Part shown: piece by piece, positions 70-11,099 of the stretch
Numbering within the stretch: position 1 is the first letter of the stretch
Layout: the number at the start of each line of letters is the position of its first letter
Sequence record: PZ445551.1
Reading direction: 5' to 3' (one strand)
Source of the DNA: a phage
DNA: 64,000 bases
Position numbers and translations under genes: made by a program
Notes under the pieces: model-generated
Told to the model about the DNA's origin: nothing
Databases searched by the model: none
The model's input: only the letters and a program-made list of their open reading frames with translations

Positions 70-2898
70 ATGTATCCTATTCCTTTATTTATGTCAACAA
101 CATCAGCTTCAGTAGTAACAGCTACATCTATAACCACTTCCTCTATTGGTATTGCAATAGTTGGTAGTAAAAAACAACTGACATATACAGTTACACCCGA
201 AGATGGTGCGTTATTTGATATAGCTTTTTCATCTTCAGATAATACCAAAATGGTTATAGATAATAATGGTATGATGGAGTTTGTTGCTGAAGGTGGTTTT
301 GATGCAATAATGACAGCTAAAAATAATTTAGGTGCTGTCTTAACTGATCAATCTGGTGGTTATGCTTCAGAATTAAGTGTGTACACTGAAAGTCTATCGG
401 CTATGGATGTAGGCACTACTCAACAGTTGGTTGCTACAATCAGTCCAGAAGGTGCTAAAGACCTTCCAGACATGGTAATTACATACACCACAACAGATCC
501 AGAAGTAGCTACTGTAAGCCCTACAGGATTAATAACTGCTCTTAAAGATGGCAATTGCCGTATAGGTTGTACTGCAACGTATCAAGGAACAGTTGTGGCC
601 TCTGATAGTTCTTATTTAGGTGTTAATGCTATTCCTGTTATTTCTAATGTAACAGCCGTGGCAAACAGTTATGGAGACGTTCGTGTTGCTTGGGATGTAA
701 CTGATCCGCTAGACGGTGATACTTATACTGTAGAAGTATTAGATTTAAGTAATAACAGTGTCCAATGGACTACAACAACCACGAATACTTACGCCTACTT
801 TGATATCTCTGACTCTATTCCTCTTTATGGGTTTGCTCCAACATACCTTAAAATTAGCGTTAAGAGCACCAAAGCAGCAGCCGTTATCTTTAATAATTCA
901 ATAGCTACAGATGATTCATTCATTAAAGAAGTTATTGTCTTTGCTGGACAAGATAACGTAAATGCACACTTTACAGAACTATCTGGTGCAAATAAAGCAG
1001 CAATGAGTAGCACAACAGCCCGTAATGCATATGCTACGCAACGTGGTTTAGCAAATGCTGAAGTTCTTCCGTTAAATACAGCTTCTGGATCATCAGCAGC
1101 AGATAAATATGCAGATGATAAAGCTGGAACAGGTACACCAGACAACTACTGGTATGATCTGGATAACACAGCAGATGGGCCATGTTTAACTAACTTTATC
1201 ACTAAAGTCACACCTTATGCAAGTAAGGTTAAAGCAATTATTTGGGGACAAGGTGAAAATGATGCTGTATCAGCATCTTCAACTGTTGCAGGTAGGTACA
1301 GTAACACTACACGTTACCATGATGCCACGATAGCCATTTTTGATAAGATGCGTACAATAGTTCCTGCTTCTCAAGCAAAAATTGTTTGGCAGATCCTAGG
1401 ACGTTCTTATTTATATGGTGTAGAAGTTAATGGTGTGGATTGGCAGAAGTACAGAAATGTACAAAGAACCATCTCTACAGCACGTGATGATGTTATCATT
1501 GGTTCTTGGGTAGATGGTGCTGAACGTTACAGTGGCTATGTTTATGAAGAAGGTATTGATGGTCGTATCCATTATGTTTCTTCTGTATACCAAACAGCAG
1601 CTACAAAACTTGCTAAATCGGCAGCAGACGGTACAGACTTAACATCAACGTCACCTGTTTGGGTTGATATGGCTGTTCCAACTGGAGCAACAGCTACTTC
1701 CCAACCTAATCAAGATACAATTTTAGCATGGGATGCTCAAGGCTATAGTAAACACTACTTCCGTAATATTAACGTCTTAACCGCATCTGTATTAACTGAA
1801 CAAACGCTTAATACGAACAGTTATACGTTTACCTATGCAGATCAAGTAGAACAATATGGTTTTGCAGCAGGAACTACTATATTTGATGTTGCATATTATG
1901 ATGAAGCAAATGATGTGTTATCTCCTTTAGTACGTTTTAATGTTAACGTTACAGCAGGAACCGTAGAAGATAAACCTGTCGTGATGGACTATGATTTGAC
2001 GCAAGAAACTCTTCCAGCAGATGTGCGCGTAAACAGGAGCAACCATTATGCTAGGGCTTCTGGAGATATCCTTGTACCGACAGAGGTTTCTGCTCCTATA
2101 GCACCTTTAGAATATATTGGTACAACGCCACAAGGTAGACGTGTTGTAGCAGCCAGCCGTACATATATCTTTGTCAACAATAACTTGACAACAGCTTCCC
2201 CGTGGTTGAAGACGAACTTGACAGTTACAGCATCAACAATCAACTCTCCGGTTGGAACTACAGCTAACACTTACAAGTTAACACCTTCTACAACTTCAGG
2301 ACAACATATTTTATCAGCGGTGAATACAGCTTCTGATATTACAGCAGGTAAACAATGGGCTGCATCTGTATTCTTGAAGCCAGACGGGATCACTAAAGTG
2401 AAGCTCAAATTGACTTCAGGAGATGAGGTTAACGAAGGGACTTATGATCTTGAAGCTGGAACATTTACAGGCACAGATGCAAATATGATCGACATGGGGA
2501 ATGGTTGGTATCGTGTAATCTTACATAAAGTAACGATTGCTAAACAAGCCTCTATGACTTATGAGATTATAGCTTTGAATGCCAGTGGATCAGACACTTT
2601 TGCAGGAGACGGCACTGGAGGTCTTATTGCTTGGGTTCCACAACTTGAAATGGGTGATATGACAAACCCAGTTTGGGCGGGGACACCATTTGTTTGTACT
2701 TATGCACGAGACACAGATAGTGCTGCCACCTTCACTATTCCTAAGAACGGACACACTGGCGTGGATATTTACCACACAGATGGAACTGTGCAAAGAGAGA
2801 TTTTCACTGGCACAGCTACTACTTGGATGTTGTCATTCAACGCCGCAAGTGCGGATTGGGGATCGAAATTCATTTCTGGTTTGAAATATTACGACTAA
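70..2898 (+). CDS. Tail fibre / receptor-binding protein with Ig-like (BIG2-type) domain and a possible carbohydrate-esterase (sialate-O-acetylesterase/SGNH-like) domain
   Basis: 942-aa ORF with SD aaggag upstream; Thr/Ser-rich N-terminus; BIG2-like motif (TGLITALKDGNCRIGCTATYQG); W-QGEND esterase-like motif in the middle; terminator immediately downstream. Confidence 0.65.
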   Translation: MYPIPLFMSTTSASVVTATSITTSSIGIAIVGSKKQLTYTVTPEDGALFDIAFSSSDNTKMVIDNNGMMEFVAEGGFDAIMTAKNNLGAVLTDQSGGYASELSVYTESLSAMDVGTTQQLVATISPEGAKDLPDMVITYTTTDPEVATVSPTGLITALKDGNCRIGCTATYQGTVVASDSSYLGVNAIPVISNVTAVANSYGDVRVAWDVTDPLDGDTYTVEVLDLSNNSVQWTTTTTNTYAYFDISDSIPLYGFAPTYLKISVKSTKAAAVIFNNSIATDDSFIKEVIVFAGQDNVNAHFTELSGANKAAMSSTTARNAYATQRGLANAEVLPLNTASGSSAADKYADDKAGTGTPDNYWYDLDNTADGPCLTNFITKVTPYASKVKAIIWGQGENDAVSASSTVAGRYSNTTRYHDATIAIFDKMRTIVPASQAKIVWQILGRSYLYGVEVNGVDWQKYRNVQRTISTARDDVIIGSWVDGAERYSGYVYEEGIDGRIHYVSSVYQTAATKLAKSAADGTDLTSTSPVWVDMAVPTGATATSQPNQDTILAWDAQGYSKHYFRNINVLTASVLTEQTLNTNSYTFTYADQVEQYGFAAGTTIFDVAYYDEANDVLSPLVRFNVNVTAGTVEDKPVVMDYDLTQETLPADVRVNRSNHYARASGDILVPTEVSAPIAPLEYIGTTPQGRRVVAASRTYIFVNNNLTTASPWLKTNLTVTASTINSPVGTTANTYKLTPSTTSGQHILSAVNTASDITAGKQWAASVFLKPDGITKVKLKLTSGDEVNEGTYDLEAGTFTGTDANMIDMGNGWYRVILHKVTIAKQASMTYEIIALNASGSDTFAGDGTGGLIAWVPQLEMGDMTNPVWAGTPFVCTYARDTDSAATFTIPKNGHTGVDIYHTDGTVQREIFTGTATTWMLSFNAASADWGSKFISGLKYYD

Positions 2899-4063: not shown

Positions 4064-4091
4064 TCAAAGAAAAGGAGCCGTTAGGCTCCTT
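4064..4091 (-). terminator. Intrinsic terminator (AAGGAGCC-taac-GGCTCCTT + U-tract on minus strand)
   Basis: GC stem-loop followed by TTTTCTTT on the minus strand, between 4114-5061 and the methyltransferase start. Confidence 0.5.
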
Positions 4092-4113: not shown

Positions 4114-5061
4114 TTAGAAACAGTGCAGGAAGTTTCGACCATACTGCAAACCAATAGGAGCAAATGGGATATCATCATCGAAATCTTGAACAACAGGTTC
4201 TGGTTCTTTCGGTGCTGGCTCTTTCTTCTCTACTTTTTTAGTTTCTTTCTTAACTTCTTGTACTGGGGTAGACATTCCACGGATAGCAGCAGCTACTTTA
4301 TCAGACAAAGCAAGAACTTCACGAGCAGCTTCAATAATCTCTTCTGCCGTTACAGTTTTACCTGTATGATCACGACAAGCGTTAAGAATTGCGTGTCCAA
4401 CTGAAGCACCAAGATCATAGTCAGTCACATCAACGCCACGATCTTTAGCAATTTCTGCTTTCAGAGTAACAGTTGCAGATTGTACCACACCAGCCAAGTC
4501 GAAAGCATCACCTTTCACACCAGCACGTAGAAGCTCCAGAGCGCCGTTTACAGCGTGTCCTGTTTCAATCCCTACGGTATCACGTTTTTTGTAGTTAGGC
4601 TTGCTACCTTCGTTATTAGATGGCTTATTTCCACCTTTTGAAGAAGATTGTGCTTGCTGAACACCTTCTGTTGAAAGAATAGTGATTTTACCTTTAGAGG
4701 AATTGTAGTATGTTTTGCCATTCCATTCAGAAGGTTTAACATCCATAGTTAGTTCTACACCTTTTTCGATAGTAACCCACTTGTCACCATCTTTAACTTG
4801 CAGGTTTTCATGTTCTGGATGCAGCTTAACTTCACCTAGGCTAACCCAAACACCTTTATCATCAGCACTAGCACCTTTCTCTTTAATAAGCAGAGATGCT
4901 TTGTGAGTTGATTCAATTTTCTTATCTGGCTGACCTGCAACCTTAATATAAGAGACTTTCATTTCATCAAACTTATCCAGTTTGACATATTCAACGATAC
5001 CTTCAGCCCAGAATGCTTCTTTTTTAGTACGACGGTCGATTTCAGAATTAATTACTGGCAT
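4114..5061 (-). CDS. Putative DNA-binding protein carrying an E. coli SSB C-terminal-tip motif (DFDDDIPF) 15 residues from its end
   Basis: 315-aa ORF; Gly/Ser/Asn-rich linker; Lys/Glu-rich tail; exact DFDDDIPF octapeptide followed by APIGLQYGRNFLHCF (frame re-checked by hand). Confidence 0.65.
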   Translation of the reverse strand: MPVINSEIDRRTKKEAFWAEGIVEYVKLDKFDEMKVSYIKVAGQPDKKIESTHKASLLIKEKGASADDKGVWVSLGEVKLHPEHENLQVKDGDKWVTIEKGVELTMDVKPSEWNGKTYYNSSKGKITILSTEGVQQAQSSSKGGNKPSNNEGSKPNYKKRDTVGIETGHAVNGALELLRAGVKGDAFDLAGVVQSATVTLKAEIAKDRGVDVTDYDLGASVGHAILNACRDHTGKTVTAEEIIEAAREVLALSDKVAAAIRGMSTPVQEVKKETKKVEKKEPAPKEPEPVVQDFDDDIPFAPIGLQYGRNFLHCF

Positions 5062-5077
5062 AAATTCTCCTCTATAA

Positions 5078-5476
5078 TTACATTACTTTAACACAAAACT
5101 CTCGTAAAAGAGTAGCGTCAGTTTCTTCCAACAGGTATTTACCAAGACCAATACCAAATCCTATTTCACCACTTTCGAAATGGAGGATTTGTATCTTTTC
5201 TCCACCAAGGTTAATTACTTTTGCTTTTCCAGGATTATCCAAAACATCTCGTATTGTATCCTGTAGTAGCATTAGTTCACGTTTTGTGATAGTGGTTTCA
5301 GATATCTCTTTGTTTTCTACTCTCACTGTTAAACGGTTGTATCCACCAAAGAGACATAGTATTTGAATAAAAAAGGTATTATCTTGAGGTTCAACATCTT
5401 TTTTAGTTAGCTCAAGACGATTAGTTTCTCTACTATAGAACGTCTCGACTAAGATTTTAGAACGATTATCTGTCAT
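5078..5476 (-). CDS. Hypothetical protein
   Basis: 132-aa ORF in the replication-gene operon, tightly spaced with neighbours. Confidence 0.55.
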   Translation of the reverse strand: MTDNRSKILVETFYSRETNRLELTKKDVEPQDNTFFIQILCLFGGYNRLTVRVENKEISETTITKRELMLLQDTIRDVLDNPGKAKVINLGGEKIQILHFESGEIGFGIGLGKYLLEETDATLLREFCVKVM

Positions 5477-5519
5477 TCAAGTCCTCATAATAACACATAA
5501 TTATAATGTTTGTCAACAC

Positions 5520-9326: not shown

Positions 9327-11099
9327 TTAATAAGAACCAGCAGAAATATTTTCTGGGTTACTTGTGTATTGATCGTAATCGTGAAGTGTAGCTGTTTTAA
9401 TCTCATAGAAGAAACTACCTGCTGCACCAGTCTCTGAGAACTCACGGTTCTTTAGAATGTAGCAATATGTGCGGTTACGTTCCATAGGATCTTCAGCTTG
9501 TTTATCACGCTCCAGCGCAATTGTGATACCAGCACCTTTAGCAAGGAAGCTACTACCCATTGCATCATCTTCTACAATATGTTCATTACTATTGTTAGAA
9601 GACTTTTTAACGTGTGAAATTACAACAATGGTTATTGCATACTCTTTCATAATGCGTTTCAGCCACGTCGCAAGTTCCTCTTGTTGTGACACGTCCATAC
9701 CAGAAAGCAAATCAGAATAAGGGTCGATAACAAGAATGGTTACTCCGAAATAAATAATCATTTCCAGAACCTTCTCTTTAATCACATCTACGTTAGCTCC
9801 ACGATCATCACAAACATAGAAACGTGGTGTTCCATCTTCCCGTTCGTAAAAATCACGAATCTTTTCTTCATTATCTTTTAAAATCTTTTCCTTCTCTTCT
9901 TTCGTTTTACGGTGAAGAGGGATATGCAAGAATGAAGACAGTAAGTTACGAGAATACTTCTTATACGTTGCCTCCAAAGATAAAATACCAAGAGTATGTT
10001 CTGGGTGTGCAAGAATAATGTGTTTCGTAATCTCGTTAACCAACAGTGTCTTACCGATACTTGTTTTTGCAAGTATAACAGTAATTTCTTCTTCTACCAA
10101 GCCTCCACCTAACATATTAGAAGCAACACGCATGAATGGAGGAAGGGTAATCATTTTAGCTTCCAGGCATTCCAAGGCTGCTTCATACAGTACGTTAGAA
10201 GCGTAAACACCAGCAGGTGTGTATAGTTTAGCTTTGAAAAAGCGATCAATAAAATGATCAATTTTTCCTTCTACTAGTGCCTGGTTAGGATCTTTAACAT
10301 CAGTTAGTTCCATCACGTAAACTTTATTACGTGGTAAGATTTTAACACATTTCTCAACTGCTGCACGTCCAGCTTCATCATTATCCATACATAGAACAAT
10401 CTTTTTAAATTGATCTAAGAATTTATAACGATGTTGAAGCTGCTTATGCAGAGATGTTTCGCCACAAGTACCAGATACTACAGCAGGAACAGGATATTTA
10501 CCACCCTTGTTATAATCTTTTAGCATCTGTGTTGCAGCCAGCATATCGTGTTCACCACCAACGATTAGAATAGTACCGCTGTGGTTACGATATTTAAACT
10601 CCCCAAAAAGATCACAATCCTTTCCTGTTTCACCGATAGGATGTGAGAAATCTTTTGGATCGATACGTTGTTTATACCCAGCAATATTGTAATCTTTAGT
10701 TGTAGGGTATAGTGTTGAAATTACTTCGCCAGTAGCTTCATCGTACATATAGCGTACACCGAAAGGCTTAGAGATATCTTCACGAATACCGCGATAACCT
10801 TTTGGATTAGTTCCAGTGCTGGCTTTTAGTTTATCATGTACTTCTGGATTAAACTCACTACCCAAGATATCCTCCTCTTCAATTTCTTCGCCGTGTGCAT
10901 TTAACCATTTTTGATCAGGGATAGTAAAGCCACAAGAAAAACAATGTGCGCCTCGATGGTCTTCATCGGCATCTAAGCCATATACCATCAAATTGTTTTG
11001 TGATCGATCACGCCCTCCTTTCATACAACGAGGACACCCAGTATGTCCTTCTTGACTTAGATCAATGTTATACCCATATTTATTTACAACATAAGACAC
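9327..11099 (-). CDS. Bifunctional DNA primase-helicase (T7 gp4-like: zinc ribbon, TOPRIM, DnaB-type helicase)
   Basis: N-terminal Cys4 zinc motif (CPRC...CFSCGF), TOPRIM DxD (CMDNDEAG), Walker A AKTSIGKT; 590 aa. Confidence 0.9.
   Translation of the reverse strand: MSYVVNKYGYNIDLSQEGHTGCPRCMKGGRDRSQNNLMVYGLDADEDHRGAHCFSCGFTIPDQKWLNAHGEEIEEEDILGSEFNPEVHDKLKASTGTNPKGYRGIREDISKPFGVRYMYDEATGEVISTLYPTTKDYNIAGYKQRIDPKDFSHPIGETGKDCDLFGEFKYRNHSGTILIVGGEHDMLAATQMLKDYNKGGKYPVPAVVSGTCGETSLHKQLQHRYKFLDQFKKIVLCMDNDEAGRAAVEKCVKILPRNKVYVMELTDVKDPNQALVEGKIDHFIDRFFKAKLYTPAGVYASNVLYEAALECLEAKMITLPPFMRVASNMLGGGLVEEEITVILAKTSIGKTLLVNEITKHIILAHPEHTLGILSLEATYKKYSRNLLSSFLHIPLHRKTKEEKEKILKDNEEKIRDFYEREDGTPRFYVCDDRGANVDVIKEKVLEMIIYFGVTILVIDPYSDLLSGMDVSQQEELATWLKRIMKEYAITIVVISHVKKSSNNSNEHIVEDDAMGSSFLAKGAGITIALERDKQAEDPMERNRTYCYILKNREFSETGAAGSFFYEIKTATLHDYDQYTSNPENISAGSY

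Follow-up and report, generated by a model that had tools for sequence, protein, structure and literature searches.

The tip at the C-terminus of Escherichia coli SSB (single-stranded DNA-binding protein), with the sequence ...MDFDDDIPF-COOH (SSB-Ct), is a hub to which ExoI, RecQ, PriA, chi, DnaG and other proteins are recruited. It is among the best-studied bacterial protein-interaction hubs and a drug target, and in the accepted view it must be a free C-terminus. Here we analyse a gene for an SSB-like protein in a 64,000-nucleotide stretch of phage DNA (sequence record PZ445551.1; the whole stretch is called the window), in which the same tip is followed by a short peptide, hereafter the add-on. 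In phage T7, the acidic C-terminal tails of gp2.5 (SSB) and gp4 (primase-helicase) dock on the T7 DNA polymerase. The partners of SSB-Ct read the alpha-carboxyl of the terminal phenylalanine through a basic residue (PMC3159472), in agreement with the initial annotation of the window, which took the tip to need a free terminal carboxylate. The six C-terminal residues of HK620 SSB, NDYPPF, are required for stimulation of the phage recombinase Sak4 (PMC5928155). In phage T4, gene 32 is flanked and cut by SegG, a free-standing homing endonuclease (PMC2988022), and nuclease genes have been described at the borders of genetic exchange between phages (PMC10448857). According to a study of the DRT10 reverse-transcriptase defence (bioRxiv 10.64898/2026.04.29.721553), Bas52_0087 of phage RudolfGeigy (QXV84166.1), an SSB-like protein with an SSB-type tip, is needed to trigger this defence, escapers of Bas52 are mutated in Bas52_0087, and DRT10 protects against Stephanstirmvirinae in general; the passages of that study that were searched make no mention of the add-on.

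Rereading of the open reading frame (ORF) and its translation upheld the initial annotation in that DFDDDIPF is genuine, in frame and 15 residues from the protein end (Table 1). The 315-amino acid (aa) product ends ...EPVVQDFDDDIPFAPIGLQYGRNFLHCF, and the peptide that spans tip and add-on is DFDDDIPFAPIGLQYGRNFLHCF. Since database fragments of E. coli SSB end ...SNEPPMDFDDDIPF (e.g. P0192), in the same 8-mer, the window octapeptide equals the host tip. By our arithmetic ~5e-6 exact occurrences of an 8-mer are expected by chance in the six-frame translation of 64 kb; therefore, the match is not due to chance. In a six-frame scan of the window the tip was found once in a long ORF, and no other window protein encoded by a long ORF carries it. 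Residues 293-300 show the acidic run and I-P-F of the consensus D-D-D-I-P-F. As in E. coli SSB, the identical octapeptide lies at the end of a disordered linker (in a structure model of the window protein) of a protein with a putative OB fold. Unlike in E. coli SSB, the tip is internal: 15 conserved residues follow the Phe, which thus has no free alpha-carboxyl, and because this Phe is not terminal we did not class the window tip as a canonical SSB-Ct. The HK620 SSB is likewise a phage SSB with a C-terminal peptide, which there serves a phage-specific partner; however, its tip is terminal and divergent, whereas the window tip is canonical and has a separate peptide after it.

The add-on is a recurrent feature of a minority of the family to which the window protein belongs, PHROG 4477, within which its carriers are scattered. 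About four fifths of 100 family members end exactly ...D-D-I-P-F, and 21 of the 100 carry 14-17 extra residues like those of the window. The add-on opens with the pattern [AS]P[IV]GLx[YF] and, after a short variable part, closes at the C-terminus with hydrophobic-[HYN]-small-hydrophobic; the 15 aa of the window fit this scheme. The 42 distinct add-ons have lengths of 14 (n = 18), 15 (n = 15), 16 (n = 7) and 17 aa (n = 2); tails under 14 aa are rare (7 aa in P0184, 1 aa in P0089). A second class, [LIM]GHGYGVCRKAIYAIS, aligns to the first without gaps. It follows DDDIPF in P0147-P0150, P0186, P0187 and P0197, where the tails [LIM]GHGYGVCRKAIYAIS and MGLGYGMERRIIHAM were observed; it shares the length and C-terminal pattern of the first class and is devoid of the AP..GLQY part. 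Rare odd tails, WGRIFKM and QNEFRHYKMLSYVAA, were also seen.

The substitutions in the add-on are mainly synonymous in the SSB frame, which indicates that it is the peptide that is under selection. Comparison of the window with phage ECO340P2 revealed 5 synonymous and no non-synonymous changes, and in the comparison with PVP-SE1 the respective counts were 9.5 and 2.5. For the set of 34 unique DNA versions, the ratio of non-synonymous to synonymous divergence (pN/pS) was 0.24-0.35 when read in the SSB frame, whereas each of the other two frames gave 1 or more; the synonymous sites of the add-on are saturated (pS ~0.82). For its variable second half, on which the search for the sequences did not rely, pN/pS was 0.46-0.50. 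At the conserved residues the codon choice varies freely. By these substitutions, the add-on is a translated peptide on which purifying selection acts in the SSB frame. In add-on carriers, D-[IVT]-P-F of the tip is invariant, which argues that the tip is still in use.

The unit of tip plus add-on, hereafter the module, was found on at least seven unrelated protein backbones, which comprise canonical SSBs, three further SSB-type families, DnaB-type primase-helicases and small disordered proteins (Table 1). To learn whether the add-on occurs apart from the tip, IMG/VR viral contigs were scanned for DNA encoding F-A-P-I-G-L-Q-Y, with no tip required. In 43 of 44 matches the motif lay at an ORF end, preceded by acidic residues and D-[ITV]-P, and in all 43 the Phe was 14-16 residues from the stop; the remaining match was a chance one. 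Tip and add-on travel together, and in every case the add-on directly follows the Phe of an acidic D-x-P-F tip. A search with a profile of the tail in a set of 5.8 billion proteins returned short fragments only, and a 30-residue query run against 1.84 billion representatives gave three matches. In KPP-1, a Klebsiella phage related to P8734, the module is in a different gene, probably SSB-like, so that this Klebsiella lineage appears to have the module on both an SSB-like protein and a primase-helicase, seen in different records. Primase-helicases of 688-691 aa (L004, L015, L033 and L052) have ~100 extra C-terminal residues that end in DDDTPF plus the add-on. The small protein P0221 bears tandem tips (DDDFPF, then DEDIPF) before its add-on, and because it has no OB domain it could be a tail or decoy that stands by itself.

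In the DNA of relatives, divergence sets in precisely at the Phe codon. Among Phapecoctavirus, ECO340P2, which has the add-on, and nepoznato, which has none, differ by 2 substitutions in the 97 nt before the junction and are unrelated from the next base on, where nepoznato has an HNH endonuclease gene. The rV5-like phages have SSB-like genes that are 99-100% identical and three 3'-end states (Table 1); Bas52 has the free tip, and its sister phages Bas49, Bas50, Bas54 and rV5 have the add-on plus an endonuclease gene. When the add-on and free-tip alleles were aligned, a single insertion was observed, exactly between the Phe codon and TAA. It consists of the 45-nt add-on and the endonuclease ORF, whose annotated ATG lies within the Tyr-Gly codons of the add-on and which terminates on the original SSB stop codon. 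The same overlap was found in mEp554 with a PHROG 2340 endonuclease, and in contig L032 the add-on is kept beside an apparent decayed endonuclease start. In a prophage of E. coli HCP17S3_I4 (NZ_CM149871.1), an unannotated HNH endonuclease ORF splits IPF from the remaining add-on: the SSB ends at IPF, the ORF starts 10 nt past the ssb stop in the ssb frame, and it ends in what had been the SSB add-on, ...PVTLPFPRHAIHAI. This partial match also occurs, with no feature annotated, in several more E. coli genomes (H190-H195). Endonuclease genes also lie just after tail-less SSB genes in nepoznato, Raoultella phage Ro1, Bas51 and Vibrio K phages. The PHROG 2340 endonucleases include relatives of I-KsaII, the intron-encoded homing endonuclease of Staphylococcus phage K. 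Endonuclease adjacency is confined to a subset of carriers, and nearby endonuclease genes are absent from most carriers. A natural pair of near-isogenic phages is available from a public collection among the BASEL phages: Bas52 with the free tip and Bas54 with the add-on.

From these alignments it can be deduced that gain, loss and exchange of the add-on all take place exactly at the Phe codon, that in evolutionary terms the add-on has been inserted after the final codon and before the stop, and that HNH homing-endonuclease genes (PHROG 1035 and PHROG 2340) have repeatedly inserted at the junction. Recurrent invasion of the junction explains the patchy distribution among near-identical phages, and the role of the junction as a recombination and endonuclease site explains the occurrence of one peptide on many backbones. 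As in the cases of T4 SegG and of the I-KsaII type, HNH genes lie at the 3' end of an SSB gene and mosaicism starts exactly there. In contrast to these precedents, the insertion falls within the end of the coding sequence, either after the last sense codon and before the stop or at the joint of tip and add-on, and hence alters the C-terminus of an essential interaction motif; no description of such an arrangement was found in the literature searched. Junction mobility leaves the conservation of the peptide unexplained.

We tentatively propose, as a possibility that falls somewhat short of being probable, that the add-on is a second short docking element beside a tip that lacks its free carboxylate; together they would form a bipartite tail in which the choice of partner is altered or extended. 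The most likely candidate partner would be a conserved host genome-maintenance protein, or a replisome component common to SSB and primase-helicase. Such a partner is preferred over a sporadic defence protein because the motif is conserved across Vibrio, Aeromonas, marine and enteric phages. As with the tails of T7 gp2.5 and gp4, a short C-terminal module is common to SSB and primase-helicase (in the Klebsiella phages P8734 and KPP-1), a parallel that would point towards the replisome; unlike in T7, there is no sequence relation, and the window primase-helicase is without the module. Lambdoid carriers such as mEp235 presumably encode no polymerase (a 5-kb stretch was considered), so a phage polymerase would not be the partner in every case.

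Several observations weigh against a docking role. An internal tip may bind its partners poorly, because they read the alpha-carboxyl of a terminal Phe (PMC3159472). Near-isogenic rV5-like phages thrive whether or not they have the add-on, which indicates that it is dispensable in that background. The first seven add-on residues belonged to the search pattern for many of the sequences, so the near-zero pN of the conserved part is partly built in. In the rV5/mEp554 class, some of the constraint on the second half of the add-on may reflect dual coding, since this half overlaps the start of the endonuclease gene. A family-wide amphipathic helix was considered and rejected: the window variant scores p = 0.009, but the family median is 0.26, only 24% of the add-on variants reach p < 0.05, and many have Pro at +8. 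Finally, the module is also present on at least one true mobilisable plasmid of Vibrio and is therefore not strictly a phage feature. A beta-clamp-binding motif was also discarded as a candidate. The consensus, of the QL[SD]LF type, has Gln and hydrophobic residues at positions 2, 4 and 5; in LQYGRN, positions 4 and 5 are taken by Arg and Asn, and in relatives the Gln is replaced by Pro, Met or Thr.

Instead of docking, the add-on might be a removable pro-peptide that a host or phage protease cuts or trims, regenerating a free DDDIPF-COOH. This would let a gene-end insertion, for example a homing-endonuclease cassette, sit harmlessly in an essential gene, as a protein-level analogue of introns and inteins. 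The strict conservation of the internal tip, the fact that the residues right after the Phe are the most conserved part, the fixed length of 14-17 aa and the arrival of the add-on with an endonuclease gene in rV5-like phages all speak for clipping, as does the hydrophobic end, which is typical of C-terminal recognition signals. However, no protease or cleavage site is known, and cytoplasmic ATP-dependent proteases usually degrade processively rather than make one cut, and we consider this explanation unlikely. It is conceivable, although we doubt it, that the add-on is a 'compatibility module' that houses mobile gene-end cassettes in the last codons of an essential hub protein, either as a clipped pro-peptide or by making the tip a bipartite ligand of high affinity that would block a host SSB partner, for example ExoI. 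The initial annotation had suggested a decoy for host SSB-interacting proteins or a cleavable tip; either is conceivable.

The known recognition of the alpha-carboxyl of a terminal Phe also raises the possibility that the add-on is simply a cap. By removing the free carboxylate, the phage protein would avoid recruiting or titrating host SSB partners, or being sensed through them, and would keep its acidic tail for self-regulation. Phage SSBs are frequent triggers of defence systems, the add-on is patchily present in close relatives, and the free-tip ortholog Bas52_0087 is needed for triggering DRT10, which the DRT10 study links to SbcB/ExoI. Any residues would serve as a cap, yet both sequence and length are kept in phages from Vibrio to enterics, and a silenced tip would let I-P-F drift, which it does not; a cap is thus improbable.

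That the add-on is a C-terminal degron, whose hydrophobic end sends the SSB to ClpXP or Lon and so sets its level or timing, is quite improbable, since the most conserved residues adjoin the tip and not the C-terminus, and an abundant replication protein has no obvious gain from being destabilised. Ends such as ...YALYA, ...HAI, ...YVI and ...NCM do resemble known C-terminal degrons, among them the ssrA tag and the tails of MuA and SulA, and the E. coli prophage endonuclease ORF ends in the add-on; an endonuclease reading into the add-on would be targeted too. Equally little credit can be given to a selfish hitchhiker, in which the add-on matters only as DNA (5' flank, start region or target-site disruptor of endonuclease cassettes) and the peptide is functionless. 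In rV5-like phages add-on and endonuclease gene do come and go together, with the endonuclease ATG in the Tyr-Gly codons, the layout of mEp554 is identical, and the add-on of L032 lies next to an apparently decayed endonuclease start. But most carriers, the window included, have no endonuclease gene nearby, the synonymous bias is found in the SSB frame and not in the others, codons vary freely at conserved residues, and truncated versions are rare. An artefact, be it the sequencing or assembly error or the read-through of a normal SSB stop that the initial annotation had raised, has practically no chance of being correct: we found no point in its support, the junction has no stop codon, the same frame and tail recur in dozens of independent genomes and in metagenomes, and the motif is kept across genera, conserved at the amino-acid level across deep DNA divergence.

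The window protein itself qualifies as a PHROG 4477 member by a D-x-x-G-x-E-T-G-H block and full-length homology (E 2.5e-101); the profile stops at residue 300, and the function of the family is unknown. It matched no Pfam family, the SSB profile PF00436 included, even at E up to 1, and no PDB sequence. Homologs of the rV5 type, such as P0070, were recovered in the homolog search, and some relatives are annotated as single-strand DNA-binding protein. An AlphaFold2 model was built with 76 homologs (mean predicted local distance difference test score, pLDDT, 84.8). It has a disordered stretch between the OB-like domain and the helix bundle (residues 163-260 in the model) in addition to the linker, and a tail (residues ~261-315, pLDDT 52-66) without secondary structure that is not docked on the protein's own domains. 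D161, G164, H169, A170 and N172, in the helix-bundle segment, are nearly invariant in the family. Like Bas52_0087 and rV5 ORF214, the window protein combines a putative OB-like and a helical domain with a disordered tail and an SSB-like tip; Bas52_0087 has 408 aa, two predicted OB domains and a free tip, whereas the window protein has 315 aa, one OB-like domain and the add-on. In our reading of the two sequences, D161 aligns with D252 of rV5 ORF214/Bas52_0087; ORF214 has D252 and Y351, which are the two DRT10 escape positions according to that study. The predicted fold and the replication-module context make the label of SSB-like replication protein a well supported prediction.

The window region is 100% identical to that of VivaForever, a phi92-like Escherichia phage, and 98-99% identical to those of phi92 and ~55 further phi92-like genomes; 56 phage records match at least 80% of a 3.5-kb query at 95-100% identity, and cluster P0001, with 86 member sequences, is 98% identical and has the same tail. 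At 98-99% identity, records MG065635-MG065690, labelled 'Campylobacter phage', match phi92-like and rV5-like phages of E. coli, and their host label, Campylobacter jejuni, looks doubtful. The gene order in the replication module is primase-helicase, DNA polymerase, nucleotidyltransferase, 132-aa ORF, SSB-like gene and DNA methyltransferase. The primase-helicase (590 aa; 9327..11099, minus strand) ends ...NISAGSY. The add-on is followed by a terminator and the methyltransferase gene, with no endonuclease gene, and no homolog of the PHROG 1035 or PHROG 2340 endonucleases was found in the 64-kb window; here, the add-on stands alone. The hairpin past the stop was ruled out as a part of a cassette and taken as a generic terminator, because its AGGAGCC...GGCTCC stem also ends other genes of these phages. 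The promoter-like site lies upstream of both the 132-aa ORF and the SSB-like gene, and the two genes appear to share it and the terminator. Phapecoctavirus relatives have a ~130-aa ORF in the equivalent position, a likeness of size and position only.

Table 1. Coordinates of the SSB-like gene and its neighbours in the window, and of features in other genomes
Feature	Genome or record	Coordinates	Strand	Remarks
SSB-like protein coding sequence, 315 aa, ATG start	window	4114..5061	minus	from the ORF list; PHROG 4477 (rV5 ORF214 / Bas52_0087 family)
Tip DFDDDIPF, residues 293-300	window	4162-4185	minus	same as E. coli SSB C-terminal tip
Add-on APIGLQYGRNFLHCF, residues 301-315, 15 aa	window	4117-4161	minus	conserved APIGLQY, then variable hydrophobic end
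Stop codon TAA	window	4114-4116	minus	second in-frame stop, TAG, immediately after
OB-like domain, beta-rich, residues 1-130	window	4672..5061	minus	model
Four-helix bundle, about residues 161-262	window	4276..4581	minus	model
Disordered linker, residues 263-292	window	4186..4275	minus	rich in Lys, Glu, Pro; pLDDT 56-66, no secondary structure
Terminator-like hairpin	window	4072..4091	minus	22 nt past SSB-like stop
132-aa ORF	window	5078..5476	minus	PHROG 16560, function unknown; directly upstream of SSB-like gene
Promoter-like site	window	5487..5516	minus	TTGACA, 18-nt spacer, TATTAT, TG before second hexamer; consensus match only
Canonical Pfam-SSB protein	lambdoid phage mEp235			ends ...DDDIPFAPVTLPFPRHAIHAI
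PHROG 44 'SSB'	Vibrio phage K443			ends ...DDDIPFAPVGLQFGKKFMHVI
DnaB-type primase-helicase	Klebsiella phage P8734 (L004)	518-2581		ends ...DDDTPFAPIGLQYAKHAIYVI
ORF214	rV5			PHROG 4477; carries tip and add-on
PHROG 7364 and PHROG 3284 proteins				tip and add-on
480-aa acidic protein				tip and add-on
P0221, 108-aa apparently disordered protein	670-bp metagenome contig (L054)	307-633		add-on exactly APIGLQYGRNFLHCF
rV5-like allele, 423 aa with add-on	rV5 (L002), Bas49, Bas50, Bas54 (L056)			plus 207-aa PHROG 1035 endonuclease gene
rV5-like allele, 408 aa, IPF end	Bas48, Bas52, Bas55, Bas56 (L055)			no insertion
rV5-like allele, 408 aa	Bas51 (L062)			different endonuclease gene after stop
Prophage endonuclease ORF, ~160 aa	E. 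coli HCP17S3_I4 (L064)	about 1066-1552		between ssb and 3'-5' exonuclease gene
Plasmid SSB	Vibrio cholerae plasmid NZ_CP090388.1 (L066)	2125-2664		ends ...DDDIPFAKLGLQYRTLLQCI

The occurrence of the module was surveyed with a 27-residue query, for which a coverage of at least 80% requires the add-on. This coverage was reached in 195 of 757 matching phage records and in 45 of 1,360 matching plasmid records. The DNA variant of the mEp235 type was matched in 410 of 5,426 complete E. coli genomes (~7.5%), where it is nearly always annotated as ssb. The DH5alpha chromosome (NZ_CP026085.1, 1445257-1445352) has a match of 95.8% to the mEp235-type tip plus add-on at the 3' end of an ssb-annotated gene, which is presumably prophage-derived. 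A Salmonella plasmid match proved to be a phage-plasmid with holin and lysozyme genes. The idea that the module is strictly phage-specific was relaxed on account of the V. cholerae plasmid in Table 1, which has MobC, StbB and ArdC; its SSB gene adjoins an ArdC-family gene, with mobC and stbB nearby. The module is thus mainly, and not exclusively, found in phages and prophages. No description of the junction peptide, or of an extended or internal SSB tip in phages, was found in the literature searched, and the add-on and its link to homing-endonuclease insertion appear to be undescribed in the searchable literature.

The free-C-terminus rule is thus broken, in one specific and conserved way, by a large group of natural proteins, among them SSBs of phages and prophages, SSB-like proteins and primase-helicases. 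It also offers a clean natural example of homing endonucleases that remodel the coding end of an essential gene, and the near-isogenic Bas54/Bas52 pair makes the question of what the add-on does directly testable. If the internal tip still works, the rule needs revision. If the tip is unmasked or redirected, this would be a new layer of phage control over host genome-maintenance proteins, and may also affect the defence systems that monitor such proteins, as DRT10 with SbcB or retron Eco8. Should the add-on prove to be a compatibility module, SSB-tail biology would gain a new class, one that hundreds of phages and ~7.5% of complete E. coli genomes harbour.

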